Shown here piece by piece: positions 17,761-51,859 of a stretch of DNA of 64,000 nucleotides (positions within the stretch are counted from its first letter, which is position 1; each line of letters starts with the position of its first letter). The notes under the pieces were generated by a model that saw only the letters and a list, made by a program, of their open reading frames with translations, did not search any database and was not told the origin of the DNA. Origin of the DNA: Thermoanaerobaculia bacterium (GTDB lineage: Bacteria; Acidobacteriota; Thermoanaerobaculia; UBA5066; Gp7-AA6); the NCBI GenBank assembly GCA_046261875.1, contig JBHENW010000050.1, forward strand, positions 2,875 through 66,874, read 5' to 3'. Both the position numbers and the translations under genes were made by a program.

Positions 17761-17838
17761 GGGGGGACCTCCTTCCGCAGATGGGAAGGCTAGCACTTTA
17801 GTGCCACCAGGCCCACCCTCCCGGATCGAGGCTTTTTC

Positions 17839-32248: not shown

Positions 32249-33304
32249 TCAGCAGATTCGCGGCAGGGCTTCTCCGAACGGCAGGTCGAGAATCCGTTCG
32301 CCGCCGATGGGAGTTCGGAGCGTGACGAAGCCCGGATGATCCGCGGTGACGTGGCCGATACGGACCGCCTGGCGTCCGAGCGGATGCTGCCGCATCCTTT
32401 CCAGCACCGCCTCGGCTCCCTCTTCGGGCACGAAAGCGACGAGCTTGCCCTCGTTCGCCACGAGGAGAGGATCGAGGCCGAGGATCTCGCAGGCGCCCCG
32501 CACGGTGTCTCGTACCGGTATCGTCGTCTCGTCGACGGCGATGCCCAGACCGCGGCGCGTCGCGATTTCCACCAGGACCGCCGCGAGGCCCCCGCGCGTG
32601 GGGTCGCGCATCGCATGGATGTCCGGAAACGCGTCCATGAGCGAGAGCGCGAGCTCGTGGAGGGGAGCGGTGTCGCTTTCGATCTGACCCTCGAACTCGA
32701 GGCCCTCCCGCTTCGAGAGGATGGCCACCCCGTGGTCCCCGATCGTTCCCGAAAGCAGGATCGCATCGCCCGGTCGCACCCGCCGCGACGACAGCTCCAC
32801 GGCGGGAGCCAGAACGCCGATCCCGGCGGTGTTGACGAAGACCTTGTCGCCGCTGCCCCGGCCGACGACCTTCGTATCTCCGGTCACGATCTGGACCCCG
32901 GCGCGTTGCGCCGCTTGCGAGGCGGATGCGACGACGCGCTTGAGCTCTTCCAGTGAAAAGCCCTCCTCCAGGATGAAGGCGAGGGAGAGAAAGAGCGGGC
33001 GCGCCCCCCCGACGGCCAGGTCGTTGACCGTTCCGTTGACGGCGAGCTCTCCGATGTCGCCTCCGGGGAAGAAGATCGGCGTCACCACGTAGGAGTCGGT
33101 CGTGAACGCCAGCCGGCAGCCGTTGACCGTGATGACCGCCTGATCGTCCAGAGGCTCCAAAGCGGCATTGCGAAAGGCGGGAAGAATGATCTGCTCGATC
33201 AGCTGGCCGCTGAGCTTCCCGCCGCTCCCGTGTCCCATCAGGATCTCGCCCGTCTCGGCGATGGGGAGCGGGCAGTCGGAAAAGGGCACGACGGTGTCTG
33301 TCAT
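32249..33304 (-). CDS. hypE: Hydrogenase maturation factor HypE (carbamoyl dehydratase)
   Basis: 351 aa. PurM-like fold motifs and the characteristic C-terminal ...PRIC. Confidence 0.9.
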   Translation of the reverse strand: MTDTVVPFSDCPLPIAETGEILMGHGSGGKLSGQLIEQIILPAFRNAALEPLDDQAVITVNGCRLAFTTDSYVVTPIFFPGGDIGELAVNGTVNDLAVGGARPLFLSLAFILEEGFSLEELKRVVASASQAAQRAGVQIVTGDTKVVGRGSGDKVFVNTAGIGVLAPAVELSSRRVRPGDAILLSGTIGDHGVAILSKREGLEFEGQIESDTAPLHELALSLMDAFPDIHAMRDPTRGGLAAVLVEIATRRGLGIAVDETTIPVRDTVRGACEILGLDPLLVANEGKLVAFVPEEGAEAVLERMRQHPLGRQAVRIGHVTADHPGFVTLRTPIGGERILDLPFGEALPRIC

Positions 33305-33331: not shown

Positions 33332-33913
33332 CTAAATAACATCGTCCTCGCCCAGGGCGACGTGGAGGAGGTCCCAGAGCAGGTGGAGAAGCACCGTATG
33401 GGTTTCCTGCACGCGGTGGATGGACCAGGCGTTGACCGTGAAGCAGTAATCGCAGGAGTCGGGCATCTGCCCGCCGTCGCGTCCGGAGAAGCCGATCGTC
33501 AGGAGCCTCAGCTCCCGCGCCCGCCGCAGCGCCCGGTTGACGTTGGTGGAAGCCCCGGAGGTCGAGATCCCCAGCGCCATGTCTTCCGGCCGGGCGAGCA
33601 GCTCGAGCTGATCGGTGAAAACGCGGGAAAAGTCGGTGTCGTTGCCGATCGCCGTCAGGGTCGCGGTGTCCACGGTCAGAGCCGCCGCGGGGAGGGCCCG
33701 GCGCTTCTCGATGATGGGGTGCTGGAATTCCACGGCGACGTGCTGCGCGTCACAGGCCGAGCCGCCGTTGCCCATCACCCAGAGGCGTCCCCCGGCACGG
33801 AAGCGCTCCGCCATGGCCCGCACACAGTTCTCGAGCTGCTCCGCGTTCTCTTCGAAGAACCGGACCTTGACCTCGGCGCTTTCACGCGCTTTGCGAAGGA
33901 TGGCTTCTCGCAC
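33332..33913 (-). CDS. SIS-domain phosphoheptose-isomerase-like protein (GmhA/DiaA family) embedded in the hyp cluster
   Basis: [11 protein letters not shown] and [15 protein letters not shown] motifs. Probable GTG start at about 33913 (the track ORF start at 33982 overlaps the hypD end). Confidence 0.7.
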
Positions 33914-35006
33914 CGGTCCCCAGGTACCTCCCGTATTGATAGTAGGCCGCGCAGCTGCCCTCGGCCGAGACCATGGTCGCACCGAGCGGCGTCTGCGGCG
34001 TGCACTCGCGCCCGAAGGCGGGGCAGTCCGACGGCTTCTTGAGGCCCCGCAGAATCAGGCCGCTGATGCAGAGCGAGGACTCGGCCGTCTCGATCGTGTC
34101 GACCTCGAAGCGCTTCTCCGCGTCATGCTCGGTGTATTCGTACCGGACCTTGTAGCCGGATTTCGGGATGGACCCGACCCCCCGCCACTTGCGGTCGGCG
34201 ATCTCGAAGACCTCGAAGACCAGGTCGCGCGCCGGCTTGTTCCCGTCGCGCGTGACCAGCCGCGAATACTGGTTTTCCACCTCCGCGCGGCCCGCCTCGA
34301 GCTGGCGCACGATCATCAGGATTCCCTCCAGGAGATCGATCGGCTCGAACCCCGTGATCACGATGGGGACCCGGTATCGTGCCGCCAGAGACTCGTACTC
34401 CCGAAAGCCCATGACCGCGCAGACGTGTCCGGGTCCCAGGAATCCCTCGACGCGGTTTCCCGGGGCCTGGAGGATGGCCGCCATGGCCGGCGGGACCAGG
34501 ACATGCGAGACGAGCATCGAAAAGTTGCCGACGCCCTCCCGCTTCGCCCGATAAATCGCCATGGCGTTGGCCGGAGCGGTCGTCTCGAACCCGATGCCGA
34601 AGAAAACGACCCGCCGGGAGGGATTCAGACGGGCGATCTTCACGGCGTCGAGCGGTGAGTAGACGACGCGCACGTCGGCGCCGCGGCTCTTCAGCGTGAG
34701 CAGGTCGCCCCGCGACCCGGGGACCCGGAGCATGTCGCCGAAGGACGTGAAGATCACGTCCGGCAGGGCGGCGATCGCGTGAGCCCGGTCGATCATCTCC
34801 ATGGACGTCACGCAGACGGGACAGCCCGGCCCGTGGACGAGCTCGACGCTCGCGGGCAACATCTGGTCGATTCCGTAACGGATGATCGAGTGGGTCTGGC
34901 CGCCGCAGACTTCCATGAGCACCCAGGGACGGGTCGCGGTCCGGGCGATGCGCGAGGCGAGATGACCGGCGAGCCCCGCGTCGCGGTATTCGTCGAGGTA
35001 TCTCAC
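33882..35006 (-). CDS. hypD: Hydrogenase maturation factor HypD
   Basis: [13 protein letters not shown] and FETTAP motifs and C-terminal CxxC..C cluster ligands. GTG start at 35006 (MRYLDEYRD). Confidence 0.9.
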
Positions 35007-35278
35007 GACGGTCTCGTCTCCGGATTCTCGTCCAGGTCCGCGGTCAGCTCGCCGAGCTGACCTATTTCTTCCAGGATCCGCAGGGACTCCGCGGCCTGTT
35101 CGGGATCGATCTTGGAGATCGCGAAACCGACGTGCACGGCCACGTACTCGCCGGGGACCGCGTCGGGCACGTACGCGAGGCAGACGTCGCGCGTGATGCC
35201 CCCGAAACGCACGCGGCCGAACTTCAGACCCTTCTCGTCGCGGATCTCGAGGATTTCTCCCGGTATCGCCAGGCACAT
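35003..35278 (-). CDS. hypC: Hydrogenase assembly chaperone HypC/HupF
   Basis: 91 aa beginning [12 protein letters not shown] (essential Cys2). Confidence 0.85.
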
Positions 35279-35280
35279 GG

Positions 35281-37578
35281 TCAGCTCTCCCGTATCCGCC
35301 AGGCGGCTACGGCGGCCTGGCCGAGCGACAGCCCGCCGTCGTTGGGCGGGACCTGCCGGTGTAACAGGACCTCGAAGGCGTCTGTCTCGAGCAGCGTCGC
35401 GCAAAGCTCGGTGAGGCGCCGGTTCTGAAAGCAGCCGCCCGACAGGGCGACGACGCGGACCCCGGTCTCCTCCCGCGCGCGGGAACATCCCTCCCGGACC
35501 GCGGCGGCGAGGGTCGCGTGGAAGCGGGCCGAGATCTCCGCCGTCTCCGCCTTCGAACGGAGTTGCGCGGCGATCTCGCGGACGCAAGGACGCAGGTCGA
35601 CCTCGAACGGCGCCGGGCGATCTCCTCGGATGACGAAGGCGAAAGGCCGGGCGGCGTCCGAACCGGCGGCGGCCTCCAGCTCGATCGCCGCCTGGCCTTC
35701 GTAGGTGACGTGATCCCGGACGGCGCAGAGCGCCGCGACCGCGTCGAACCACCGCCCCGCCCCCGTGCTATCCGGCGAAGCGACCCTCTTCTCGATCAGG
35801 TGCGCGACGCCGGCCAGGCGCGGGCCGATCCGGCCGAGCAGGTCGAGCGGCTCTCCCGCGTCCCGCAGGACGGCCGCGGCGAGGCGCCAGGGCTCCCGGA
35901 TCGCCGCCTCCCCCCCGGGCAAGGCGACCGGCCGCAGATGGCCAATCCGGCGAAAGCCAGAAAAGTCAGCGAGCAGAAACTCACCGCCCCAGAGCTCGCC
36001 GCGCGGGCCGCAACCCGTTCCGTCGAACGCGACACCGATCGCGCGGTCCGTCCGGCCGTTGTCGGCCAGGCAGGAAGCGATGTGCGCATGGTGGTGCTGG
36101 ACCGGGATCCGCGGAAGCCCGCTCCGCAGCGCGAATCGCGTCGAGGCGTAGTCCGGGTGGAGATCGTGCGCGAGCGTGCGGGGGTTGGTTCCCAGCAGCT
36201 GCGAGAGCTTGACGCCGACCTCGCGGAAGAAGGAAAACGCCTGCAGGTTATCGAGGTCCCCCACGTGCGGAGACAGAAACGCCTCGCTCCCGCGCGTCAG
36301 GCAAACGGTGTTTTTCAGCTGGGCTCCCAACGCGAGGACCGGGGGAGCCTCGAACGGCAAGCGGATCGGGATGGGAACGAAGCCGCGCGAGCGGCGGACC
36401 GGCTGGGCGAACCCCGCGAGGATCCGCACGACCGAGTCGTCTGCCCGGGTATGTATCTCCCGGTCGTGGAGAAGAAAGGCGTCCGCGATGCCTGCCAGAC
36501 GCTCCAGAGCCTCCTCCTCGGTGCGCGCGATGGGCTCCTCCGAGCGGTTTCCGCTCGTCATGACGAGCAGGAGCGGGCCGCTCGCCAGGATCAGATGGTG
36601 GAGCGGCGCGTAAGGGAGCATGATCCCGTACTCGTTCAGCCTCGGCGCGACGGAAGGAGCGAGGGAGGTCCTCACCGGCATCAGCACGATCGGACGCTGC
36701 GGCGAGAGCAGAGCCTCGCGGGCGGCCGGACCGACCTCGCAGATCGCCTCGATTTCGTCGAGCGTTCCGGCCATGAGCGCGAACGGCTTGTCGGGACGGC
36801 CCTTGCGTTCCCGCAGCCGCCGCAGGGTCCGCTCGTTCGAGGCGTCCGCGGCGAGGTGGAAGCCCCCGATGCCCTTGATGGCGACGATCTGCCCCGCCCG
36901 AAGCCGATCAGCCGCCGCCAGGAGCGCGTCTTCGCGAAGGAGGGGCGCGCAACCGGGCGCCACGAGCTCCAGACGCGGGCCGCACCCGGCGCACGCGTTG
37001 GGCTCGGCGTGAAACCGCCGGCTCGCCGGGTTCTCGTATTCCCTGCGGCAGGGATCGCACAGGGTGAACCGGGCCATGGTCGTCCGTTTCCGGTCGTAAG
37101 GCACGTCGCGGACGATCGTGTACCGGGGACCGCAGTCCGTGCAGTTGATGAACGGATAGCGGTACCGCCGATCCGCGGAATCGAAGAGCTCTTTCAGGCA
37201 CGCGGCGCAGGTGGCGGCGTCGGCCGGGATGCTCGTGGCGGCGGACGTGGCTTCGCCGCTCGCCACCACGCGAAATGCAGTCTCCCCGAGGGGCGCCAGC
37301 TCGGACATCTCCACGGCGTCGATTCGCGCCAGCGGCGGAGCACCGGCGCGCAGCAGGGCGGCGAAGCCGCTCACCGTTTCCAGGGGCCCCTCCAGCTCGA
37401 TCCAGACCCCTTGCGAGTCGTTGCGGACGATGCCGGCAAGGCCCGCTTGCCGCGCCAATCGAAACACGGCGGGACGGAACCCCACCCCCTGCACGGTTCC
37501 GCGGACGCGCAGGCCGCGCCGGACGGCGGGGCTTGCGGCGGGCGCCTCCGCAGACCGGGTCGCGCTCATGACGTCCAT
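35281..37578 (-). CDS. hypF: Carbamoyltransferase HypF
   Basis: 765 aa. Acylphosphatase domain ([14 protein letters not shown]), two Zn-finger CxxC pairs (CAACLKE...CTDCGPRYT), YrdC and Kae1-like domains. Confidence 0.9.
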
Positions 37579-38333
37579 GCGTTCGCGACCGCTCCGATCG
37601 CGACCACGGCGGGCGACCCGGGGGCGTAATCGAGGAGGGCCTTTCCGGCTCGCTCCGATTGGAGCACCGCTTCGTCGAAGGGGACCCAGCCGGCGATGGG
37701 GATCCCGCGCGCCTCACAGAACTCACGGACCGCGATCTCGTCCTCGGCCGTTCGCGCCTTGTTCGCAACGGCCTCGACCCTCGGGATGCCGAGCTCGCGG
37801 CCGAGCTCGACCGCGCGCGCGCCCGTCTCCAGCGCCCGGAAGTACGGCTCCATGACCACCACGAGCGCATCGACGTGCCGCGGCGTCCCGCGGCTGAAGT
37901 TCTCGAGCCCCGCCTCCATGTCCGCGACGACGGGGCCCGTGGAGGCGCCGACGAGCTGGGCGAGCAGGCTACGCACGGTAGCGTGGTTGCGGCACATTCA
38001 ACCGGTCCCCGCGTGCCCCACGCGGCCCAGGATCAGGAGCCGGACGCCGTCCGGCGCCTCGACTCCGTAGCGCTCCGCGATCTCTTCCGGGGAGGCCACC
38101 AGCATCAGCTTTTCTTCGCCGTCGATGTCTTTGCGGCGCTCCATCACGTCGCGGGGCACGGTGGGGAGGCGCATCGCGTCCGACGGCGAGAGCCCCAGCG
38201 CGACCGCCAGGTTCGGGTTGGAATCGCCGTCCACCGCGAGAGCTCTCCCCTCGCGTCTCCCGAGCAGGCGGGTGAGGGTCGCCGCGATCGTCGTCTTCCC
38301 GACGCCACCCTTCCCGCCGATGGCGATCCTCAC
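37566..38333 (-). CDS. CooC-like MinD/ParA-family Ni-insertion ATPase interrupted by one in-frame TGA (37998-38000) at the conserved C-x-C motif; selenocysteine candidate or nonsense pseudogene
   Basis: The 111-aa ORF (MRIAIGGKGGVGKTTIAATL...ILGRVGHAGTG*) and the 143-aa ORF (MCRNHATVRSLLAQLV...) are in the same frame, separated only by TGA. They total 255 aa. Confidence 0.6.
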
Positions 38334-38638
38334 CTGTTCCTCCGATCGTCAACCCTCGGCTCGCCCGCGGATCCCGGCTCGTGCTCGTGATCCTGCTGGC
38401 AGGAGAACCCGCATTCCCCGTGTCCCTCCGCCAGCATCTCCCGGAAGTTGTCGACGAATCGCCGGCGGGCCTCGGGGAGACCGGACTCGGTCAGAGCGTA
38501 TCGTTCCTCGGGCCGCCGCTCGACGGCGCCCAGCGCTTCCAGAGTCTGAAGCGTCGCCGCGATCTCCGGCTCGGGATAGACCAGAAACCCGGCGAGGTCG
38601 CGGGCGGAAAGCTGCTCGCCAAAACCCTGTCCCCGCAT
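38330..38638 (-). CDS. Small hypothetical protein (about 102 aa) with wHTH-like N-terminus and Cys/His/Glu-rich C-terminal tail (HGECGFSCQQDHEHE); possible metal-binding accessory protein
   Basis: Internal ATG at 38638 (MRGQGFGEQLSARDLAGFLVYPEPEIAATLQTLEALGAVER...). Position between the Rieske gene and the CooC-like gene. Confidence 0.4.
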   Translation of the reverse strand: MRGQGFGEQLSARDLAGFLVYPEPEIAATLQTLEALGAVERRPEERYALTESGLPEARRRFVDNFREMLAEGHGECGFSCQQDHEHEPGSAGEPRVDDRRNR

Positions 38639-38712
38639 CCAGAAGAGAAGCTCCAGGACCTCGTCCCGGCGCGCGACCTCCCGGACCGCCTCCCCGTCGG
38701 GCGTGGGCCGGC

Positions 38713-39489
38713 TCACAGCCCCACCAGCACGGCCGTGGCGTCGAGGCGGACCGGAAGGAGCTCGAGCGAAAGCTCGGGGCGATCCACGCAATGGCCGTCG
38801 GAGAGATCGAAGCGGTGTCCGTGACAGGGGCACGTGATCACGCGACCCTCGCGGCGCCATCCTTCGGGAGCCATCCCTCCCGACGGGCAGCGATCCCGGA
38901 ACGCGTACACCTCGCCTCCGACGTCGCAGGCGAGCACGGAGTCGTCGAACATCTGGATCCTGCGAAGCTCTTCGTCCTCGAGCTCGAAGCGGTGCACGAG
39001 CGGAAGCCAGTTCCGCCGTTTTTCGGCGTAGGCCATGTTGACCGATGACGTCACGATGACGGCGTGATCCGGCAGATCGTCTTTCAGGGACTTCTCGACC
39101 TCGGAAGCCAGAGTCTCGAGCGAGACCGCGGGGTCGAGCGGTCGGACCAGGTGGATTCGCACGGACCCGGGGGTCACTTCCATCAGCTGCGCGGCCGTTC
39201 GGTCTTTCTCGAGGAGCGGCCGGAGCCGTTCGAGCGCCGATCCGACCTGCCGGGCGACGTCGGTTTCGATGAGCCCATAGCCCTCGAGGATTCCCGCCAC
39301 CACGGGATCCCGGCGGAGCTTCTCGACAAGGCCCGGGTCGGACGCGCCGGCGATCGCGAGGGTGCGCGCGAACGCGTCGCGGTGCAGATCGAGAACGGCC
39401 CCGAGCGCTTCGACGATCCGATTCCGGCCGTCGTCGTAGGAGTACATCTCGAGCACTCGAAGAAGCTCCTCCAGCTTGTCATCGCCCAT
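38713..39489 (-). CDS. Hydrogenase-associated Rieske-type [2Fe-2S] protein (N-terminal helical domain plus C-terminal CxH...CxxH)
   Basis: C-terminus DRCPSGGMAPEGWRREGRVITCPCHGHRFDLSDGHC. Recalled resemblance to HucE/HhyE proteins of actinobacterial high-affinity hydrogenases. Confidence 0.6.
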   Translation of the reverse strand: MGDDKLEELLRVLEMYSYDDGRNRIVEALGAVLDLHRDAFARTLAIAGASDPGLVEKLRRDPVVAGILEGYGLIETDVARQVGSALERLRPLLEKDRTAAQLMEVTPGSVRIHLVRPLDPAVSLETLASEVEKSLKDDLPDHAVIVTSSVNMAYAEKRRNWLPLVHRFELEDEELRRIQMFDDSVLACDVGGEVYAFRDRCPSGGMAPEGWRREGRVITCPCHGHRFDLSDGHCVDRPELSLELLPVRLDATAVLVGL

Positions 39490-39970
39490 GTTCGGCCGCC
39501 AGGACTTCGCGCACCCGAATGGCCGCCTCGTTCACCGCAGCCCGGACCGGCGGGGAGAGGGTGAGATCCAGTTCACAGCTCTGGGGTTCACATCCCACGA
39601 TCGTCACATCGTCGGGAAGATAGCCGAGCGTCCGGGCGACTTTCATGGCCCGCGTCGGTTCCGCGAAGTGCGGATCGATCCCGGGCTCGGAAGCGGGGGC
39701 GAGATCCGCCTGGCTCGGGTGGAACACGTAGAGGGTTCCCGGCGGCTGCCCGCGGCGCACCGCGTCCACGATGACGAGCCGGCCGCAGCCGTTCATCAAT
39801 CCGAACACGAGCTCCATTCCGCCGATGCCGACTTCGAGGAGCTCCGCTCCCGGAGGAAGCGGATCCTCGGCGAGCCTCCGAACGACTTCCACCCCGAACC
39901 CGTCATCGCCCAGGAGGAGGTTTCCGAACCCGGCCACGACCGCCCGCCCGGATGTCACGACGGCAGCCAT
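39479..39970 (-). CDS. Hydrogenase maturation endopeptidase (HupD/HybD/HyaD family)
   Basis: 163 aa. GFGNLLLGDDGFGVEVVRRL and the GMELVFGL...HF region. Confidence 0.85.
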   Translation of the reverse strand: MAAVVTSGRAVVAGFGNLLLGDDGFGVEVVRRLAEDPLPPGAELLEVGIGGMELVFGLMNGCGRLVIVDAVRRGQPPGTLYVFHPSQADLAPASEPGIDPHFAEPTRAMKVARTLGYLPDDVTIVGCEPQSCELDLTLSPPVRAAVNEAAIRVREVLAAEHGR

Positions 39971-40539
39971 CCGGCGATGGCGCGGCGGATCTCCTCGATC
40001 ACGCGGGGCACCGCCCGCTCGACGACGGGAGAGAGCTCCTCTCCCCAGTCGTCATCCAGGGCCTCGACTTCGATGACGACCACGTCCTGCGGCAGCTTGT
40101 CGAAGTAGGTGGCGATGATGAGGATGTTGTCGAGGCTGATGACGCCGGTCACGGCCTCGGCGACGCGCGCCTGGATCTCGTCTGCATCGGGAAGCGTACG
40201 GCGCCACGGGTAACGCAGGACGTCTCCCGGGGGGCGGCCCCGCTTGACGGCTCCCACGAGAACGATCCGGTCGTACGGGGGGCGGGCGTCGAGATTGTGC
40301 ATGACGCCCACCGGTCCATAGCTCAAATCCTCGAACTCGACCCCGTCCGGCCAGCTCTCCCGTGCGAGGCGCTCGATGAGAAGCGGGCCGAAGGAAAGGT
40401 CCCGCAGGAGGCGGTAGCCCACCCCGCCCACCAGAAGGCGTGGACCTCTCGAGGATTCGAGCTCTGTGGTCAGGCCGGAAGCGTCCGGATCGGGGCCGGT
40501 GAGCTTCCGCGAGCTCTCAATCGTCGGTCCCGCAGGCAC
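39955..40539 (-). CDS. Second, divergent hydrogenase maturation protease-like paralog
   Basis: LLVGGVGYRLLRDLSFGPLLIERL...GPVGVMHNLDA pattern. Overlaps the large-subunit 3' end and the hupD-like start. Confidence 0.6.
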   Translation of the reverse strand: MPAGPTIESSRKLTGPDPDASGLTTELESSRGPRLLVGGVGYRLLRDLSFGPLLIERLARESWPDGVEFEDLSYGPVGVMHNLDARPPYDRIVLVGAVKRGRPPGDVLRYPWRRTLPDADEIQARVAEAVTGVISLDNILIIATYFDKLPQDVVVIEVEALDDDWGEELSPVVERAVPRVIEEIRRAIAGWLPS

Positions 40540-42379
40540 AGGTGTTCACCTCGCACGTGATGTGCTGGTCGCCGGCGTAGATGTGGGTCGTGCACGGCAT
40601 GCACGGGTCGAAGCTGCGGATGGCGCGGAGGATGTCGATTCCCCGGAACTTCTCCGGGCTGGCGAACTCCTCGAGGATCGGAGTCGCCAGGACGGCCTCT
40701 TCGTAGGGGCCCGGGTTGCCCCACGGGTCTTTCGGGCAGGCGTTCAACGTGGACGGCGTGATGATCTGGTAGTTGACGATCGCCCCCTTGTCGAGCTCCA
40801 GGTGGTGCGAGAGCCAGCCGCGTCCCGCGCCCCAGAAACCGACCCCCATCCGATGGTCCTTCGGAACCTCGAACGGAGTCGACGTGCGGTAGTCGCCCGT
40901 TTTCAGGATATCCATCCCGATCAGCCAGTTGTCGTAGGCGACCACGCACTGGTACGCGATCGAGTACGCCCGCGCGCGATTGCGCTCGAACGCGTTGAAA
41001 ACCGGAGGGATCTTCCACTCGACCTCGACCGCCGGATCGATGTACTTCGGGATCAGGATCTTCATGCCGTCCGGCGTCAGATCGAGGAACCGCCGATGGG
41101 GGAGCTTGCCTGCGAGCACGGTGATCCACGGTCGGGCGTAGGTCCCGGCTTCCACAGCCACCCGGTCCCATCGAGGCGCGGTGGCCCAGCTGTACTTCTC
41201 GCGCCAGTTGGTTCCGCCCGGTTTCGGTTTCGTTTCCTTGTTCCAGGGGTGGTGGGGCGACAGGGGAGCTCCGAGCGGGTCCGTCTTGTGGGGGTGGCCG
41301 GTCCACTGCTCGTAGTAGGAGTGCTCGATGAACTCCTCCATGCCGAGATTTATCTGCTGGAGCTTCGTCGTAACGAGCTTTCCATCGAGGATCACGCCGG
41401 GCGTCGCCCATCTCCGCTCCCCCCAGGCGTTGCAGTTCGCATAGGTGGCGTCGTAGGCGGTCGGGTCGTCCCAGATTCCGAGATCGGCCATGTTGACGGG
41501 CCGCGTGCCGCACTCTTTGTACTTTGCGTTCGCGTCGTAGAAGAAGTCCGCGATGTCGTTCCAGATCGCGATGGCCCGCTTGGCGAAGTCGAAGGTCTTC
41601 ATCAGTCGATTGAGGTACACGTTGAAGCTCTGGATCGTCACGGTGTGGCTGATGCCGCCGGGGACGATCGTCTCGGGGTGCGGATACTTGCTCATCAGGG
41701 TCACGTAACCCTCGCGCGCCATGCGGGAAAGCTCCAGACCCTCGAGATACAGCTTGCCCACGAGGGGGTTCATGTCGTGGAAGAGATCGCTCATCTTCGA
41801 GTACCCGTGGATGCTTCCCCAGCGCGTCTCCGTGCGCGTCGCCCGGTCCCAGAGCGTCGGCTCCGTCTTCTTGATCATGGCCTCGGAGTAGTCCGGGCCG
41901 GCCAGCATGAAGAGATGCATGCTGTTGTCCCACACGAACTCCATCGAAAGCGCGAGGTTGCGGATGACGACGGCCAGGGGCGGGGGGCAGATCCCGAACG
42001 CCATCTCGATCGCGAGAGCGGAGCAGGTCGAGTGGACGCCGCCGCACACCCCGCAGGCGCGGCTGCTGATGAAGATCGCGTCGCGCGGATCGCGCCCCTT
42101 CAGAATCACTTCGTATCCGCGAAAGAGCGTCGCGATCGAGCTCGCTTCGAGGACCATGCGGTTCTCGAGGTCCACGACGCTGTGGAAGCCGAGCGCTCCG
42201 GCCACGCGCGTGAGCGGGTCGTAGTCCATCGCCTTGACGTAGCCGTTCTTCGCGAGGAGCTTCTTGATCCCGTCGCGATCGATCGCCTTCGTTTCGTACG
42301 CGAACGGGTCGGCGGCCCCGCCTCGAAGGGTTGCGCCGCCCTGTGCGTCGAACTCGATTGGAAGGTTACGGAAGCACAT
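40517..42379 (-). CDS. hhyL: [NiFe]-hydrogenase large subunit, group-1h-like (high-affinity / actinobacterial type)
   Basis: 620 aa. L1 motif SSRACGVCGGVHS and L2 motif SFDPCMPCTTH (Cys, not Sec), followed by a roughly 20-aa C-terminal tail. Confidence 0.9.
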   Translation of the reverse strand: MCFRNLPIEFDAQGGATLRGGAADPFAYETKAIDRDGIKKLLAKNGYVKAMDYDPLTRVAGALGFHSVVDLENRMVLEASSIATLFRGYEVILKGRDPRDAIFISSRACGVCGGVHSTCSALAIEMAFGICPPPLAVVIRNLALSMEFVWDNSMHLFMLAGPDYSEAMIKKTEPTLWDRATRTETRWGSIHGYSKMSDLFHDMNPLVGKLYLEGLELSRMAREGYVTLMSKYPHPETIVPGGISHTVTIQSFNVYLNRLMKTFDFAKRAIAIWNDIADFFYDANAKYKECGTRPVNMADLGIWDDPTAYDATYANCNAWGERRWATPGVILDGKLVTTKLQQINLGMEEFIEHSYYEQWTGHPHKTDPLGAPLSPHHPWNKETKPKPGGTNWREKYSWATAPRWDRVAVEAGTYARPWITVLAGKLPHRRFLDLTPDGMKILIPKYIDPAVEVEWKIPPVFNAFERNRARAYSIAYQCVVAYDNWLIGMDILKTGDYRTSTPFEVPKDHRMGVGFWGAGRGWLSHHLELDKGAIVNYQIITPSTLNACPKDPWGNPGPYEEAVLATPILEEFASPEKFRGIDILRAIRSFDPCMPCTTHIYAGDQHITCEVNTCACGTDD

Positions 42380-43828: not shown

Positions 43829-43842
43829 GGTCGTCCCTTCTT

Positions 43843-44136
43843 TCACGAGATGAGCCCGAGAGCGCGCGCCGCGCCGGGCAGGTTTTCGGCTGTCGATGTC
43901 AGGTGCTGCTGAACCGCCGTCAAGCCCCCTCCGATCGCTGTCAGCCCTCCCGCCACACCCGAGATCCCCGCGGGAAGGGGAGACGTCTCCACTTCGATGG
44001 CCCGCACGCCCCAGGCGATCTTCTCGAGGCTCCGGCGGATTCCGGAAAGAGCCTTGTAGATCATGGCGAGAGCCCAGGCGAGGGCCCCCAGAAGAACCAG
44101 AAACAGCAGCGCGGTCAGGATCGTCCAGAGGACCAT
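43843..44136 (-). CDS. Small single-pass membrane protein, paralog 4 of 4 (N-terminal TM helix plus Ala/Gly-rich helical domain; YtxH/DUF948-like architecture)
   Basis: MVLWTILTALLFLVLLGALAWALAMIYKALSGIRRSLEKIAWGVRAIEVETSPLPAGISGVAGGLTAIGGGLTAVQQHL... Its stop lies 14 nt upstream of the hhyS ATG. Confidence 0.55.
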   Translation of the reverse strand: MVLWTILTALLFLVLLGALAWALAMIYKALSGIRRSLEKIAWGVRAIEVETSPLPAGISGVAGGLTAIGGGLTAVQQHLTSTAENLPGAARALGLIS

Positions 44137-44432
44137 CACGCTTCCCGCGGGGGCGCCACGGCGTCGAGCGTGACGGCAATCTTTTGCGATACGGAGTCGA
44201 TGCCGCCCGCCACCGAGAGCAGCGTCGGCGCGAGCTTCAAGACCGCGCCCAGGTCCGCGATGGCGGCCGTGTTCCGGCCAATTCCCTGCGCCGCGGGAAC
44301 CGCTGTCCGCGCGAGCTCGCTGATCTGCTTGCAGCAATGGATCACCTTGAAGAGGTACCAGGCGGCCACCGCCGTCAGGAGGAGGGCCAGCCCGAGCGAG
44401 ATCCACCAGATCCAGAGAACCATCGCGCTCAT
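44136..44432 (-). CDS. Small single-pass membrane protein, paralog 3 of 4
   Basis: MSAMVLWIWWISLGLALLLTAVAAWYLFKVIHCCKQISELARTAVPAAQGIGRNTAAIADLGAVLKLA... Overlaps its neighbours by 1-4 nt. Confidence 0.55.
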   Translation of the reverse strand: MSAMVLWIWWISLGLALLLTAVAAWYLFKVIHCCKQISELARTAVPAAQGIGRNTAAIADLGAVLKLAPTLLSVAGGIDSVSQKIAVTLDAVAPPREA

Positions 44433-44725
44433 GCGGCGCTCGAGCGAAAACGCTTCGCGATACGTCCGAGGCTGCCGTCGGCGAGAACGAGCCAGTTCAG
44501 GACCGAACCGAGTCCCGCTCCGAGCTGCGCGAGCGCGCCGTTGACCTGCTCCAGGGCTCCGCCCAGGGGCCGGGTATCCGCTTCGACCTTCGCGAGGGCA
44601 TCGCGAATCTCGCGGATCGCCTTCGCCGTCGCCCAGAGGTACCGGGCGATCAGAATCAGTCCCACGGCGAGGACCGCCACGAGGATCCCCAGATAGGCGA
44701 GGGTTGCGACGAGAACGGGAGGCAC
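44429..44725 (-). CDS. Small single-pass membrane protein, paralog 2 of 4
   Basis: MPPVLVATLAYLGILVAVLAVGLILIARYLWATAKAIREIRDALAKVEADTRPLGGALEQVNGALAQLGAGLGSV... Confidence 0.55.
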   Translation of the reverse strand: MPPVLVATLAYLGILVAVLAVGLILIARYLWATAKAIREIRDALAKVEADTRPLGGALEQVNGALAQLGAGLGSVLNWLVLADGSLGRIAKRFRSSAA

Positions 44726-44726
44726 G

Positions 44727-45005
44727 TCAGCGGCCCCCGCGGGCCAGATCCGAGAGCTTCGCGTCGATCGCTCCCGCGCCCGCGGCGATTCCCTTCGCCG
44801 TCGCGAGGATGTCTCCGGCGACGGCGTTGGTCTTCTGCAGCATCCAGATCGAGACCGTGTTGGCCGCGATCTGCTTGCCGGCGATCCAGATCTCGTTGGC
44901 GCGCTTGTCGATGGACCGGGCCGCCGCGATGATGATCAGGAGCAGCGCCGCCACGATCAGCACGACGACCAACCCGATCGCCCAGGAGATCTGCCAGAGG
45001 GTCAT
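44727..45005 (-). CDS. Small single-pass membrane protein, paralog 1 of 4 (first gene of the hydrogenase operon)
   Basis: MTLWQISWAIGLVVVLIVAALLLIIIAAARSIDKRANEIWIAGKQIAANTVSIWMLQKTNAVAGDILATAKGIAAGAGAIDAKL... GAAGGGAGGGG RBS upstream. Confidence 0.55.
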   Translation of the reverse strand: MTLWQISWAIGLVVVLIVAALLLIIIAAARSIDKRANEIWIAGKQIAANTVSIWMLQKTNAVAGDILATAKGIAAGAGAIDAKLSDLARGGR

Positions 45006-45072
45006 GTCCGTCACGCGCCCCTCCCTTCGCCGATTCGCATTCTCCGGCGCGAGAAAGCGTCCGTCAAGGCAG

Positions 45073-45088
45073 CTTCGGAATTTCGAAG
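45073..45088. promoter_or_regulatory. Imperfect 16-bp palindrome CTTCGGAATTTCGAAG in the divergent psiE-like / hydrogenase-operon intergenic region
   Basis: Seen directly. A near-identical motif GTTCGATTTTTCGAAG at 47279-47294 lies upstream of the TonB receptor gene. Confidence 0.3.
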
Positions 45089-45153
45089 CGACGGGAGGCG
45101 GTGGATCTGACGCCGAGAGGTAGGATCCCGGCAAACGGACCGGACGAGGTTCC

Positions 45154-45678
45154 ATGAGAAAAGACGACGCCGAGACCGAGGGCCTGACCAGGTCGCAAGC
45201 GCCCGGATCCGAAGCCCGCGCGCGTGAATGGCTGTCGCGCCAGTTCACACGCGTCGAAGACGTTGTTTACGCGGGCCTCGGGATACTCCTCGCGGCTGTG
45301 GCGCTCGTGCTCCTGGTCGCGAGCGCGATCGCTTTCGCCCAGAGCTTCGGTGAGGGAGCGCTGCCTCGAAACGTCGTCGGGCTCCTCGATCGGATGCTGT
45401 TGATTCTGATGGTCGTCGAGATCCTCTACACGGTTCAGGTCTCGTTCCGAAGCCACGTGCTCACCCCCGAGCCCTTCCTCATCGTCGGCCTGATCGCCGC
45501 GACGCGGCGCATCCTCGTTCTGACCGCGGAGTTCCCTGACATCCTGGAAAAGGGAGAAACGCCCTTTCGGCACGCCATGGTGGAGCTCGGCCTGCTCACC
45601 CTGCTCATCGTTGCCCTCGTGGGGTCGCTCCGGTTGCTGCGGCAGCGCCCGTCCGAGGCCGCTGCCACGAACACGTAA
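45154..45678 (+). CDS. PsiE-family (phosphate-starvation-inducible) membrane protein-like
   Basis: 174 aa, four predicted TM segments. MVVEILYTVQVSF and LIVGLIAATRRILV resemble E. coli PsiE segments. Confidence 0.5.
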   Translation: MRKDDAETEGLTRSQAPGSEARAREWLSRQFTRVEDVVYAGLGILLAAVALVLLVASAIAFAQSFGEGALPRNVVGLLDRMLLILMVVEILYTVQVSFRSHVLTPEPFLIVGLIAATRRILVLTAEFPDILEKGETPFRHAMVELGLLTLLIVALVGSLRLLRQRPSEAAATNT

Positions 45679-47193: not shown

Positions 47194-47319
47194 GCCGCCC
47201 TCCTCGCCCCGACAGGCTCGAGTCTAGCAGTCCTCGGGCCCCAAAGGAATCTTGACTTTAGGCCTCCCGAGGCAAACAGTTCGATTTTTCGAAGTCGAGT
47301 TGGGGGAGGAGTTTTAGCC

Positions 47320-49478
47320 ATGATCGTGAGAACTGTCGCCGGCCCTCGGGTGATCGCCGCTTGCCTCGGTCTTTTCGTCGTCTCGCTGCTCTGGGCCGGC
47401 CCGGCACGAGCGCAGGGCGCGCACCCGGAACCGACCGCGACCCCATCCAGCGACGCCGCTCAAAAAAAGAGCGACGAAAAGAAAGAGTCCGAGACCCGAG
47501 TAAGAACGGAGATCACGGTCTCGGCCGAAGCCCCCCCCGGAAGACGGAGGTCAGCCCCGACATCCGGACCCTGCCCGCCAACAGCAGCATCCTGGGCGCC
47601 GGCGCCTTCGAGACGAAGCTGTACCGGGAGCCGGGCGAGGTCATCCGCTCACTCTCGGGCGTCGATTTCGTCTCTTACGGCCAGGGCGGAGTCCCGTCCG
47701 GGCCGTCCGTTCGGGGCTACACCGACCGCAATTTCGGGCAGGACATCGCGGGCTTCCTGGACGGCATCCCGCTCAACATCTTCGGCTTCGTGGCGTCTCA
47801 CGGTGCCATGGACATGACGATCCTCCCGCCCGAGGCGGTCGAGCGGGTGGAGCTCGTCCGGGGGCCTCTGGACGCGCGATTCGGCGACTTCCACCGTGGC
47901 GCGAGCGTGAATTTCGTGACGAAGGATGGCGTGGCCGCTCCCTCGATCGCTCTGAGCGGCGGAAGCTACGGGCAGAGGCGCGCCCTCGCGACGTTCGGCA
48001 ACGCGGACCCGGGGGTTCGCAAGCTCAGCCTCATGGCCAGCGTGGACGCGCAGGGGAACGACGGGTACAGCGAGAACCAGAAGGTGGAACGCCTCCGCGT
48101 GTTCGGCAAGGCGGTGATTCCGCTGGGTCAGACCGATCTCGCCATCACGGGATTGCACTTCACGAGCGAGTGGGACGCGCCGAGCTATCTCGACCTCGCG
48201 GACATCCGCAGCGGGCGGGTCGACGAACGGGACGCCGTCAACCCGACCGACGGGGGGGAGCAGGACCAGACGCTCGTCTACCTGCGCTTCCGGCACGCCC
48301 CGGACACTCCGTCTCCCCTGGTCTTCACCGCCTACGGGAGCCAGAAGGACTGGACCCGCTACCGCTCGGATTTTCTGATCAGCCCGGCGCAGCGCCAGAC
48401 GCACCAGAACGACCAGCGCACGACCTTGGGTTGTCGGCTCGAAAAGAGCTTCGGTCTGTCGCTCGGCGCTCATCGCCTCCTGGTGCTCCTCGGGACGACG
48501 CTCCAGCGTGACGACGCGGAGACCCGGCAGAACGCGACGATCAACCGCGAGCTGTTCAGCCGGACGGACGACGTCGATGAGCTTTTGATGAACATCGGGG
48601 CCTACACGCAGGTCCAGTGGGCGCCGACGCCGTGGATGAAGGTGTTGGGGGGCGTTCGGTACTCGCACCTCGACTACGAGCTGGAGGACAACATCCGTGC
48701 GCCCGGGACCTACGTCGACTCGTACTCGGATGACCAGATCAGTCCCAAGTTCGGCATCTCCGTCGAACCGATTCGGAACGTCGAGCTCTATGCGAACTAC
48801 GCGACCGGAATGCGCTCGCCCACGCCGCGCACCGAGGTCCGCAACAGCCTCGGCAGCATCGCCAGAGTCGAGATCGCGGAAACGGAGAGCTTCGAGGTGG
48901 GTGTGACGGCGCGCGTTCTCGACCGGCTCCATTTCCATGCGGACGTCTTCCGGGCCGACAACAGCAACGAGATCCGGGGCATACCGCCGGGCGGCGTCCA
49001 GTTCGAGAGCCTGGGCGCTTCGCGGCGCGAGGGCATCGATTTCGAAGTCAACTGGTTTCCGGGGCCCTCGACGCGGGTCTTTGCCGGGCTCTCCTGGGTC
49101 GACGTGGTTCTTCAGACTCCGGTGACGCCGGCCGCGAATCATCTCCCCGACATCCCCGACTATGTCCACCAGGCCGGAGCCGAGACGCAACTCGACGCTC
49201 CGGGGAGCCTCCCGGGCCGGTTAACCCTCGCGGCCGACCTGTCACTGTACGGGAATCGCAATCTCAACACCCTCGGCACGCTGCAAAGCCAGAAGTACGA
49301 GCGCGCGACGGCCAAGGTGGTCTACCACGGCGAGCGCAGCTATCGCGTCTGGCTCGGGAGCGTCTGGTATCCGGGCTCGCGCTACGGCGAATCAGCCTTT
49401 CTTTTCGGGTCGAGGGTCGGTGTGCGGGCGAACCCCCGGCTCACGGTCGAGGGAGGAGTCGCCTACACTTTCGAGTGA
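47320..49478 (+). CDS. TonB-dependent outer-membrane receptor; frameshift at a C8 homopolymer (47531-47538) separates the signal peptide from the plug/barrel
   Basis: ATG at 47320 with RBS GGGGGAGGAG. Signal peptide MIVRTVAGPRVIAACLGLFVVSLLWAGPARA in frame 1. Plug and barrel (VDFVSYGQGG, IPLNIFGFVASHG..., C-terminal ...GVAYTFE) in frame 0 of the 47361..49478 ORF. Confidence 0.7.
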
Positions 49479-50035
49479 AACAGGAGACCGCCGCGCCGGA
49501 CATCGCCGTGGAGGAGAAACCGAGGGGGAGGTCACGCCGCGGGCTCATTTACCTGCTCTTTCCTCTCGTCGTTCTCGGCGCGGGGCTCGCGCTCGCTCCC
49601 GAGCGTCTCCCGCGGTTCCTTCTGGGGTTCGCGTACAGGGGGCCGCTCGTCGAGACGGTGCGATGGCGTGAGTGGGTCGAGCGAAATCCCACCCTGTTCG
49701 GGCCTCTGGGAGAGACGGCGCGGTTCGCGATCGTCGAAAGTCCCGAAGACTCGACCGGCCTGCTCTTCACCCGGGGGCCGGATGGCGTGCGCGTGGAAAA
49801 AACCCACTTCCTTCAGTTCCAAGGCATCCCGGTCATGCTGGCGATGCCTCCGACGGCAGCCGAAGAGCTTCTGCGGCTGGATCAGCGGGAGGGCAACAAG
49901 TTCTGGGACGGCGTGAAATTCCTCGTGCAGACTCGCCGGATCATCGCGTACGTACGCGCTCCACGCGCCGAGCTCGATCGCGTCGGTCTGACCGGCTTTC
50001 TCCAGGTGCTCGACGCCATTCCACCCAAATCCTAG
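49475..50035 (+). CDS. Hypothetical membrane-anchored protein, translationally coupled to the TonB receptor
   Basis: GTG overlaps the receptor stop (GTGA). N-terminal TM LIYLLFPLVVLGAGLALA. Confidence 0.45.
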   Translation: MKQETAAPDIAVEEKPRGRSRRGLIYLLFPLVVLGAGLALAPERLPRFLLGFAYRGPLVETVRWREWVERNPTLFGPLGETARFAIVESPEDSTGLLFTRGPDGVRVEKTHFLQFQGIPVMLAMPPTAAEELLRLDQREGNKFWDGVKFLVQTRRIIAYVRAPRAELDRVGLTGFLQVLDAIPPKS

Positions 50036-50046
50036 GCTCGGTGCGC

Positions 50047-50394
50047 CTATCCGCCCGGCGGTGATGGGAACAGCCGCCGGAGGGAGTCGCGCAGGGCCCG
50101 ACCGCGGCGCGTCAGGCGGTACTCCGTACGGGGATGGTCCTCGTCCTCGGCCTGACGCCGGATGAGGCCCACCTGTTCGAGCTCCTGGAGCCGGACGGTG
50201 AGGGTCGAGGACGAGAGCCCCCCGAGCTGCTCCTGGATCTCGTTGAAGTGCGCCAGTCCGCGAGCCGCCACCACGTTCAACACCTGGAGGGCATGGCGGC
50301 GTCCGACGGCCTGGACGAGAGGCTCCAGGACGCAATAACAGGAACCGATCTCCGAATCGGCGATGACGCAGCCGCAGTCCCCGGCGTCCGTCAT
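50047..50394 (-). CDS. HxlR-type winged-helix transcriptional regulator with N-terminal Cys cluster
   Basis: 115 aa. CGCV...CYCV, then RHALQVLNVVAARGLAHFNEIQEQLGGLSSSTLTVRLQELEQVGLIRR. Confidence 0.7.
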   Translation of the reverse strand: MTDAGDCGCVIADSEIGSCYCVLEPLVQAVGRRHALQVLNVVAARGLAHFNEIQEQLGGLSSSTLTVRLQELEQVGLIRRQAEDEDHPRTEYRLTRRGRALRDSLRRLFPSPPGG

Positions 50395-50447
50395 CCGTCG
50401 AGTTTATGCCGCGCCCAATCGCACCGCCCCCTCGTTAGACTGGCGCG

Positions 50448-51239: not shown

Positions 51240-51825
51240 GGAGGTCCAGAAACTCCTCGCGCACCGGGCGGTCGTAGAAGATCCCGCGGATCGCGGAGGT
51301 GACCGTCAGCGCTCCGGGCTTCTTGACGCCGCGCATCTCGACACAGAGATGGCGCGCCTCGATGACGACCATGACGCCCTGCGGGTGGAGCTTGTCCGCC
51401 ATGAACTGCGCGACCTGTTCCGTCAGCCGCTCCTGGAGCTGCGGGCGCCGCGCATAGAACTCCAGGATGCGCGGCATCTTCGAGAGCCCGACGATCTTCT
51501 CGTTCGGGATGTAGGCGAGGTGCGCATGGCCGTAGAACGGGACGAAATGATGCGAGCACAGGGAATAGAACGGGATGTCCTTCTCCATGACCATGGCCTG
51601 GTAATGCTCGGAGTTGGGAAAGATCGTGATCTTCGGCTCCGCCCCCTCCGATAGCCCGTGGAACATCTCCAGGTACATCTTGGCGACACGGTCCGGCGTC
51701 TCGGTCAGGTTCGGGTCGTGCGGATCCAGCCCGAGGGTCTCGATGATGCCGCGAACGTGGCGGGCGATCTCCCGGACCTTCTTGGCCTCCTCGACGGGGG
51801 CGATGATGATGTCGGTCTCGCTCAT
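51223..51825 (-). CDS. folE: GTP cyclohydrolase I
   Basis: 200 aa. YSLCSHHFVPF and EARHLCVEMRGV motifs. Confidence 0.9.
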   Translation of the reverse strand: MSETDIIIAPVEEAKKVREIARHVRGIIETLGLDPHDPNLTETPDRVAKMYLEMFHGLSEGAEPKITIFPNSEHYQAMVMEKDIPFYSLCSHHFVPFYGHAHLAYIPNEKIVGLSKMPRILEFYARRPQLQERLTEQVAQFMADKLHPQGVMVVIEARHLCVEMRGVKKPGALTVTSAIRGIFYDRPVREEFLDLLNRRG

Positions 51826-51859
51826 GGCCGTGAGCCGCGCATTCTAGCCCTCCGGCGTC

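Follow-up and report, generated by a model that had tools for sequence, protein, structure and literature searches.

A Predicted CooC-like Selenoprotein ATPase Encoded within a [NiFe]-Hydrogenase Cluster of a Thermoanaerobaculia Bacterium

Structure of the Interrupted Gene

The gene analysed here lies in a stretch of 64,000 nucleotides (nt) from a Thermoanaerobaculia bacterium (assembly GCA_046261875.1, contig JBHENW010000050.1, positions 2,875 to 66,874), hereafter the window; all coordinates refer to this 64-kb window, unless they are preceded by the handle of a related locus (L001 and so on). Two minus-strand open reading frames (ORFs), 38333..37998 (111 amino acids (aa), end including the stop) and 37997..37566 (143 aa), were found there in a single frame, with a TGA as the sole break. 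An earlier note had proposed that they form a joined product of 255 aa with the TGA as codon 112, and this was confirmed on the sequence. The 255 codons comprise a GTG start and 111 aa, the UGA, for which decoding as selenocysteine (Sec) is proposed (Sec112), and 143 further aa up to a terminal stop that is again TGA (37568..37566), without further internal stops or frameshifts. The two ORFs are one gene, which encodes a CooC-like ATPase of the MinD type. Its features, all on the minus strand, are the following:

37566..38333, minus strand: CooC-like (COG3640/PF01656, MinD-type) ATPase gene, from frame continuity, PF01656, the match to CooC1 and the ratio of non-synonymous to synonymous substitution rates (dN/dS)
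37998..38000, minus strand: in-frame TGA, codon 112, proposed Sec codon at the first position of a U-x-C metal-binding motif, from the CooC1 alignment and the homologues
37992..37994, minus strand: TGC codon of Cys114, the second U-x-C ligand, aligned to Cys114 of CooC1 and TGC in 20/20 Sec forms
38292..38315, minus strand: deviant Walker A motif (P-loop) GKGGVGKT, residues 7–14, from the translation and the alignment to the CooC1 P-loop
37968..37982, minus strand: hairpin GCUAC-CGUGC-GUAGC, resembling a Sec insertion sequence (SECIS), from covariation, RNAalifold, a minimum of synonymous diversity and the criteria for bacterial SECIS (bSECIS) elements

The residues flanking the TGA read GHAGTG-[TGA]-M-C-R-N-H. 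In the window, TGA ends 26 of 36 genes, the end of the CooC-like gene included, and TAG the other 10; TGA is thus an ordinary stop in this genome and the genetic code is not reassigned.

Assignment to the CooC Family

A phmmer search of the joined protein against the PDB gave as top match CooC1 (3kje; E = 1.4e-32), over residues 2–233 of the query and 2–231 of the chain. CooC1 delivers Ni to CO dehydrogenase, chelating the metal by a C-x-C motif at the dimer interface in a dimerisation that depends on nucleotide and Ni (PMC3792862). In the alignment, codon 112 falls on Cys112 and Cys114 on Cys114, so that U-M-C stands opposite the C-Y-C of 3kje, just as expected if the UGA replaces the first Cys of the metal site; the Ni motif around Cys112/Cys114 given in the earlier note was also right, as 3kje reads GGSQCYCREN. 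The predicted deviant Walker A, GKGGVGKTT, is present at residues 7–15, its P-loop being invariant across nine diverse Sec forms, and the second Cys of the motif (114) is likewise invariant among Sec forms.

Pfam assigned the protein to PF01656 (CbiA/MinD/ParA; E = 1.7e-13), with weak matches to NUBPL-type ParA and NifH-type families, and the PDB entries for MinD and FleN, which are devoid of the C-x-C motif, matched at E values of about 1e-7 or weaker. No NCBIfam model reached its cut-off for the joined protein, and no HypB family was found among its Pfam or NCBIfam matches that would place it with the HypB/UreG/CobW G3E GTPases.

The protein is thus similar to CooC1, the Ni-insertion factor of the Ni,Fe-CO dehydrogenase of Carboxydothermus hydrogenoformans (3KJE), in fold family, length, deviant Walker A and motif residues 112/114. 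In contrast to CooC1, it has UGA for the first Cys, and its partners are a [NiFe]-hydrogenase and hypCDEF instead of cooS/acs.

Distribution of TGA and Cysteine Codons among Homologues

The homologue search retrieved dozens of clusters (90% identity) of proteins of about 143–155 aa, 65–98% identical to the C-terminal half of the window protein and beginning with M-C-R-N-H, right behind the stop codon; the full-length relatives were all at most 56% identical. In public annotation the two halves appear as separate proteins (about 111 and about 144 aa), under the names “CO dehydrogenase maturation factor” or “hypothetical protein”.

Inspection of DNA from 43 species-representative genomes revealed TGA at the equivalent of codon 112 in loci L001 to L023. 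The phyla carrying this form are Acidobacteriota (including Thermoanaerobaculia and Terriglobales), Armatimonadota, “Deltaproteobacteria”, Gemmatimonadota and Actinomycetota, in addition to unbinned metagenomes; Acidimicrobiia loci presented TGC or TGT at the same codon. A metagenome scan with generic P-loop patterns, which mostly returned distant CooCs, provided four further TGA forms from more distant subfamilies (L054, L055, L061, and L125), and L134 is a fifth additional one. Counting the window, 29 loci thereby have TGA at this codon, the 28 others lying on 27 distinct contigs; they belong to at least five phyla, and the TGA is conserved down to about 37–48% identity; as L001 and L010 are one contig, these loci correspond to 28 distinct sequences. 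In addition, when 1.84 billion representatives were searched exhaustively, the C-terminal half as query retrieved at least 15 distinct 50%-identity clusters starting with MC..HA.VR.

Cysteine (G-C-x-C) was found at the equivalent position in all of the 81 full-length homologous proteins, in 25 distinct DNA sequences of the Cys form and in about 80 classical CooC-type genes, about 130 homologues having been inspected. The classical CooC-type relatives (G-C-x-C-P-E-N or G-C-Y-C; roughly 80) all have Cys, unlike the window protein. One apparent Sec form of a classical CooC, P0251 (MCPANT...), was discarded as an artefact, since its DNA has TGT at a contig edge. Hence, both states that the earlier note had considered for relatives at codon 112 do occur, TGA in the 29 loci and Cys in about 130 homologues. 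In a neighbour-joining tree the Sec and Cys forms are interleaved, with the pairs L015/P0005, L018/P0010, and L020/P0018, and with L022 beside an actinobacterial Cys clade, which indicates several independent switches at one metal-ligand codon.

A lone in-frame stop in a single assembly would normally suggest a pseudogene arisen by recent nonsense mutation, or an error of sequencing or assembly, and the exact window protein has no record elsewhere. However, the TGA is shared by 27 other contigs, which are independent and come from various studies and phyla, the at least 15 clusters mentioned above start exactly behind codon 112, and the TGA/TGC polymorphism tracks phylogeny, which rules out a systematic assembly error common to all of them. 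Moreover, no other stop or frameshift accompanies the TGA, and dN/dS values (Nei-Gojobori, pairs with dS of 0.7–1.5) ranged from 0.04 to 0.22 upstream of the TGA and from 0.12 to 0.26 downstream of it. Being well below 1, they indicate that both halves are translated and constrained, which excludes a pseudogene. The recent nonsense mutation that the earlier note had named as the alternative is excluded by this purifying selection downstream and by the depth to which the TGA is conserved, and a defective gene or a faulty sequence retains a next to negligible probability.

A Conserved Hairpin Downstream of the UGA

The hairpin of the window has a stem of 5 bp, formed by 37982..37978 with 37972..37968, and a loop of 5 nt (37977..37973) with G-U at loop positions 2–3. 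It begins 15 nt past the last base of the UGA, and its loop begins 20 nt after the UGA; the earlier note had placed it at 37968–37982, 18 nt downstream, which holds when counted from the U of the UGA. All five pairs are formed in 25 of the 28 distinct sequences, and in an alignment of 21 sequences the hairpin is paired in 96.2% of cells. Two of the five pairs vary, and only by compensatory changes (10 cells): pair 30–40 is U-A in 13 sequences and C-G in 8, pair 31–39 is A-U in 19 and G-C in 2, and no one-sided change was detected. Some of these compensations couple an amino acid change to a synonymous one, Ser to Gly with GCU to GCC in one case, and Thr to Ala with CGU to CGC in the other. None of 500 shuffles reached the observed covariation score, sliding the 3' arm gave only 8–40% pairing, and RNAalifold found the same helix unguided. 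The comparative checks suggested in the earlier note favoured a selenoprotein.

The coding sequence over the hairpin is also constrained at the nucleotide level. Synonymous diversity (heterozygosity) among 20 Sec forms was 0.17 over codons 112–122, the minimum of a gene whose mean is 0.45; two rare codons over the hairpin, GCU and CGU, are fixed despite a G+C content at third codon positions near 0.88. The 5-bp helix is kept in none of the 25 distinct Cys-form sequences (59% of cells paired), not even in the three among them that encode the identical peptide H-A-T-V-R-S. L134, with a different peptide (H-R-A-V-R-G), shows a 7-bp hairpin at the same place, again with a GGU loop 20 nt after the UGA.

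The bSECIS model describes a loop of 3–9 nt with G in one of its first two positions, a stem of 4–16 bp, 16–37 nt between UGA and loop, and a minimum free energy of at most −7.5 kcal/mol (PMC13188914). Except in L017 and L018, the present hairpins agree with its geometry (5-nt loop CGUGC or GGUCC, 5-bp stem, G and then U at loop positions 2 and 3, 20 nt between UGA and loop). In energy the fit was ambiguous: the core alone gave −4.4 to −8.0 kcal/mol, the 48-nt context −8.5 to −21 kcal/mol, and the folding z-scores were not significant; thermodynamic stability is therefore not used here as evidence. The case for a SECIS is made by position, covariation, suppressed synonymous change and specificity for the Sec forms.

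Other hairpins were seen in two loci, one in L017 (GCUAAU-GGGAAA-AUUAGU, 29 nt after the UGA; region L017:457-516) and one of 7 bp with a CCAC loop in L018 (region L018:5703-5762), which may reflect SECIS turnover.

A Second Paralogue with Two In-Frame TGAs

A second CooC-like paralogue, absent from the window, was found at L046:5558-6349 (plus strand) from a split pair of CbiA annotations, with two in-frame TGAs in the context N-P-E-P-G-[TGA]-x-[TGA]-C-G-L-S-P-E-Q-L-L. The same U-x-U arrangement is present at L023:16975, L039:5108, L047:5867, L053:1546, L061:1025 (minus strand), L093:2159, and L109:1267, and a copy at L065:2617 (minus strand) has TGC-x-TGA (C-P-U). Its many full-length homologues (61–74% identity) read P-G-C-P-C-C-G; both TGAs therefore align to cysteines. 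All nine loci of this paralogue present a downstream hairpin, [CU][CU]GAGC-AGUU-GCUCGG, in which the rare Leu codon UUG is fixed; two Cys-form controls (n = 2) have CUC or CUG there and hence no loop G-U. Both paralogue types occur on one contig in L023 and L061, and L039 and L046 combine a Cys form of the first type with a TGA form of the second. The second paralogue is a probable double-Sec protein, and it independently shows that these lineages tolerate UGA at the metal site, where it is probably decoded.

Actinobacterial/Acidimicrobiia hydrogenase clusters (L135:8204-11431, L136:8246-9741, L046:4762-8762) were observed to contain three or four CooC-like paralogues, two of which often overlap in tandem; this suggests chaperones that act as heterodimers or in several steps.

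Hydrogenase and Maturation Genes around the CooC-like Gene

Along the minus strand, the CooC-like gene is preceded by four ORFs with a single transmembrane (TM) segment, the small and large subunit genes of a [NiFe]-hydrogenase, two HycI-type endopeptidase genes, a Rieske protein gene and an ORF without assigned function, and it is followed by hypF, hypC, hypD, a SIS-domain gene and hypE:

43843..45248, minus strand: four short single-TM ORFs (HylTM-like), upstream of the small-subunit gene, each with one N-terminal hydrophobic segment
44179..42431, minus strand: ORF of the [NiFe]-hydrogenase small subunit, probable start near 43830 (Pfam)
42379..40517, minus strand: [NiFe]-hydrogenase large subunit with a DPCMPC motif (Pfam)
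40539..39955 and 39970..39479, minus strand: two HycI-type endopeptidase genes (Pfam)
39489..38713, minus strand: Rieske protein (Pfam)
38860..38330, minus strand: ORF of unknown function overlapping the CooC-like gene, with a His/Cys-rich C-terminus (translation)
35281..37578, minus strand: hypF, 765 aa, directly downstream of the CooC-like gene and overlapping its end (ORF; syntenic gene in L001 with HypF Pfam domains)
35281..35003, minus strand: hypC (Pfam HupF_HypC)
about 35000..33882, minus strand: hypD (Pfam HypD)
33982..33332, minus strand: SIS-domain gene (Pfam SIS_2)
33304..32249, minus strand: hypE (Pfam AIRS/AIRS_C)

The overlap with hypF suggests translational coupling. No gene for CO dehydrogenase (cooS/acs) was found beside the CooC-like gene, neither in the window nor in the relatives, the neighbours being [NiFe]-hydrogenase subunits and hypCDEF; the protein is therefore a CooC homologue with a different likely client, and not functionally a CooC. 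Wherever the sequence flanking a relative, of the Sec or the Cys form, was long enough, the gene was found among structural genes of hydrogenase and hyp genes. L001 (76% identity) is syntenic with the window cluster and has four ORFs of about 95–106 aa at the place equivalent to that of the TM ORFs (L001:2981-4191). The Cys-form relatives, from Chloroflexota, Acidimicrobiia, and others, lie among [NiFe] subunits, short ORFs, Rieske, HycI, and HypF/HypC genes and Nik/Opp-type ABC transporters.

The earlier note had also placed the gene where hypA/hypB would usually be, which agrees with its position directly upstream of hypF-hypC-hypD-SIS-hypE, its overlap with hypF, and a window in which no homologue of HypA or HypB was detectable. 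With E. coli seeds, tblastn gave no match to HypA or HypB in the 661 kb made up of the window and 49 loci, in which HypC and HypE were found in 26–27 loci, nor in the window and the whole set of 129 related loci.

The DPCMPC motif of the large subunit is the ordinary one, so that this is not a [NiFeSe] enzyme. The best PDB match of the subunit is a group 1h enzyme (5aa5; E = 2e-146), and it is 61% identical to the large subunit of a cluster with the order small subunit, five short ORFs, large subunit. From these two matches and the Rieske and HycI genes, the cluster appears to match the description of group 1l (Hyl). Among the hydrogenases of Antarctic desert soils, this type is reportedly the most abundant, and the published description of its cluster lists “conserved ORFs with no predicted function” and mentions no CooC-like gene. 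A mismatch to group 1l is the place of the four TM ORFs of the window, which precede the small-subunit gene instead of separating it from the large-subunit gene; in the published arrangement, as in L045 and L048, five short ORFs separate the two genes, and the window thus presents a variant architecture.

Some further observations were made on the surroundings. The tandem HycI-type genes (39479-40539) encode proteins of 163 aa (E = 2e-15) and 194 aa (E = 5.6e-05), and correspond to a single 363-aa gene in L001. The small-subunit gene, a single ORF in the window, appears in L001 (L001:4204-5531), a long-read metagenome-assembled genome, as two overlapping ORFs in different frames, which is probably an assembly indel and not biology. 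The ORF at 38330-38860 (minus strand) had no Pfam match, and its tail is rich in His, Cys, and Glu (…EGHGECGFSCQQDHEHEPGS…); a small PadR or HTH gene occupies its position in the Cys-form loci L046 and L048, and it could encode an Ni-responsive regulator or a partner metallochaperone. Finally, a TonB-dependent receptor, a Peripla_BP_2 protein, an HxlR regulator, and GTP cyclohydrolase I flank the cluster in the window (47262-51843) and in L001 (L001:1-2215, 16612-18795); this set and the Nik/Opp-type ABC transporters of the Cys-form clusters may be alternative metal-uptake modules.

Search for Selenocysteine Machinery and Other Selenoprotein Genes

The genes selA, selB, and selD were searched by tblastn with the E. 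coli proteins, and tRNASec with ARAGORN, in the 64-kb window and in the 129 related loci (1.28 Mb), and none of them was detected. Selenoproteins are documented in Acidobacteria, Actinobacteria, Deltaproteobacteria, and Chloroflexi (PMC1794560).

Two other genes of the window were considered as selenoprotein candidates and rejected. A second pair of same-frame ORFs separated by TGA (58470-58889/58890-61100), taken for a possible Sec-containing formate dehydrogenase, consists of an unrelated small gene followed by dnaB with an intein; the ORF of this DnaB replicative helicase (58890-61100, plus strand) carries an intein-like insertion (…SGCLTAGTRIL … FLANGIVAHNSLEQ…). A YdeP/FdhF-like molybdopterin oxidoreductase (19236-21461, minus strand) has Cys at the Sec-equivalent position (A-R-L-C-H-A-A-S), and upstream of it lies an unrelated PIN-like gene.

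Proposed Mechanism and Alternative Explanations

We propose that the UGA at codon 112 would be decoded as Sec, directed by the small SECIS stem-loop 15 nt downstream, and that the protein would carry U-x-C instead of C-x-C. By analogy with CooC1, two protomers may dimerise upon ATP binding, their U-x-C motifs jointly forming an interfacial Ni(II) site with two Se and two S ligands; upon ATP hydrolysis, Ni would then be passed to the apo form of the large subunit of the neighbouring group-1l-like [NiFe]-hydrogenase, and the protein would in this way replace the HypA/HypB pair missing from the cluster. Any advantage of Se in such a site might lie in a lower pKa, a faster metal exchange, or a resistance to irreversible oxidation in aerobes. 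This proposal, taken as a whole with both Sec and the role of Ni chaperone, we hold to be likely; its more general part, that the UGA is recoded and a full-length protein is made, is very probable.

A truly split gene was a serious rival: translation would stop at the UGA and restart at the adjacent AUG, and the P-loop and C-terminal fragments would assemble non-covalently. The codon after the TGA is indeed ATG in 25 of the 29 loci (the window and 24 others), and gene callers give the C-terminal half as a protein of its own starting with M-C-R-N-H. However, four TGA forms have GCG (Ala, L054), CTG (Leu, L055), ACG (Thr, L061), or CTC (Leu, L125) as the next codon, and Met113 is also present in 28 of the 81 Cys forms, including those nearest to the Sec forms. 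In every case the interruption is a TGA; TAG was never seen in its place, even though it ends 10 of the 36 window genes. Independent splits would have had to strike one metal-ligand codon several times. Furthermore, the conserved hairpin would lie 12 nt inside the supposed second ORF, which is unexpected for a start site, and reinitiation cannot explain the two TGAs, one codon apart, of the second paralogue. A split gene is for these reasons highly improbable.

Recoding to an amino acid other than Sec has to be considered too, as Cys, Ser or Trp could be inserted by a tRNASec-like suppressor (an SelC*-type tRNACys with SelB, or an acidobacterial allo-tRNA) or by near-cognate read-through. Allo-tRNAs of Acidobacteria may act as nonsense suppressors, and the SelC* tRNACys of delta-proteobacteria mimics tRNASec and may read UGA (PMC5389517); the lack of sel genes in the window and in the sequence of the related loci would fit this explanation as well. 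On the other hand, insertion of Cys would bring no gain over a TGC codon, yet the TGA has repeatedly been gained or kept, Ser or Trp at codon 112 would destroy an otherwise invariant metal ligand, and the conserved, position-specific hairpin points to SelB-dependent decoding. SelC* has been reported in anaerobic Firmicutes, Thermodesulfobacteria, Nitrospirae, and Proteobacteria, which are not most of the phyla seen here (PMC5389517). We consider decoding as a residue other than Sec quite improbable.

Even if the protein is a selenoprotein ATPase, its client could be another one, the protein being a regulator or partition-type MinD/ParA, a carrier of Fe-S or another metal, or a chaperone of a different Ni enzyme. 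The function is predicted from sequence, weak Pfam matches to NUBPL-type ParA and NifH-type families exist, and up to three or four CooC-like paralogues in related clusters may divide roles among them. Against this, the best full-length match is CooC1 with its C-x-C aligned, at E values far from those of MinD and FleN, in which the motif is absent; the gene stays among hydrogenase structural and hyp genes in all adequately flanked relatives, often beside Nik/Opp-type ABC transporters, and its overlap with hypF suggests translational coupling. A different client is accordingly unlikely. Given a cluster with HypF/C/D/E and neither HypA nor HypB, the protein is probably the Ni-insertion ATPase of the hydrogenase, and a role of standing in for HypB, drawn from homology and gene context, is plausible.

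Several results weigh against the Sec-dependent Ni chaperone proposed here. The search for selA, selB, selD and tRNASec described above was negative, and the Sec trait of the carrier lineages is documented at phylum level only (PMC1794560). As regards the hairpin, its core is weak (−4.4 to −8.0 kcal/mol), and only with 48 nt of context (−8.5 to −21) does it reach the threshold of −7.5; the 60-nt stretch behind the UGA is no more stably folded than its shuffled versions, with a single-sequence z of +0.44 for the window; the covariation comes from only two of the five pairs, and the loop G-U also starts an invariant Val codon; and in L017 and L018 a change of Ser122 to Glu breaks two basal pairs. 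No Rfam SECIS family was found, either in the whole window at the gathering threshold or in 37850-38100 at E ≤ 10, where only tRNAs and noise were returned. Finally, the role as Ni insertase and the hydrogenase as client come from homology and synteny, HypA/HypB could lie elsewhere in the genome, and a divergent HypA could have escaped the E. coli seeds.

Relation to Known Systems and Significance

A precedent for the replacement of the GTPase HypB by a MinD-type ATPase in Ni insertion is provided by the ATPase-type (Mrp/MinD-family) HypB of Thermococcales, which works with HypA, a protein missing from the present clusters. No Sec form of this HypB is known. It was absent from the PDB matches of the window protein at E ≤ 1e-3 and is thus not detectably similar to it. 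The usual HypB, which acts together with HypA, resembles the window protein in its proposed job and its place in the pathway, and it is likewise an NTPase of the SIMIBI class, whose dimers form around a metal site with Cys ligands (PMC3792862); in contrast to the MinD-type ATPase described here, HypB is a G3E GTPase, and the May 2026 catalogue of prokaryotic selenoproteins holds no Sec form of it.

That catalogue, of 119 families, contains no CooC, MinD, ParA, or PF01656 protein and no maturation factor of hydrogenase or CO dehydrogenase, and the U-x-U paralogue is likewise absent from it. Its nearest entries are a CobW-related G3E GTPase (UxxC) and [NiFeSe]-hydrogenase subunits. The former (NF041053) stands alone in the catalogue as a putative metallochaperone NTPase whose Cys-type metal motif contains Sec; unlike the window protein, it belongs to an unrelated G3E GTPase family, has UxxC, and shows no link to hydrogenases. 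In the large subunits of [NiFeSe]-hydrogenases, Sec takes the place of an Ni-ligating Cys, for which the proposed benefit is a Ni site guarded from irreversible over-oxidation (PMC13188914). Those enzymes contain the Sec themselves and are carried by sulfate reducers and methanogens, whereas in the window the enzyme is of the DPCMPC type and Sec would be in the maturation factor. In addition, the CooC-like selenoprotein family is not in NCBIfam, the BSepDB and deep-Sep papers do not mention it in their main text, and a full-text literature search combining selenoprotein or selenocysteine with CooC or “CO dehydrogenase maturation” returned nothing relevant.

As judged from the sequences compared here, the gene most likely represents a new bacterial selenoprotein family, in an unusual functional class and ecological setting. 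A broader hypothesis, which we put forward only tentatively and hold to be possible without favouring it, is that the group-1l-type hydrogenases of aerobic soil bacteria, proposed oxidisers of atmospheric H2, would be matured by an Ni insertion that is independent of HypA/HypB, dependent on selenium and carried out by CooC-like ATPases. The interfacial C-x-C would repeatedly have been turned into U-x-C and, in the second paralogue, into U-x-U, giving an Ni site that is faster or resistant to oxidation, and H2 scavenging in soil would be tied to the availability of selenium.

If the Sec-dependent chaperone proposed here is real, one selenoprotein family would be added, and probably also a second, double-Sec one. 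The new family would be of an unusual type, consisting of ATPases for metallocentre assembly instead of redox enzymes. The finding would represent the first case of Sec in a hydrogenase maturation factor, would identify the Ni-insertion step in group-1l-type clusters, and would reveal the use of Sec in lineages and habitats with little study of selenoproteins. Because public annotation breaks each of these genes into two ORFs, an intact maturation gene is overlooked in pathway reconstructions and the usage of Sec is under-counted. Finally, the natural Sec/Cys pairs would be ready material on which the contribution of selenium at an Ni-thiolate chaperone site could be tested.

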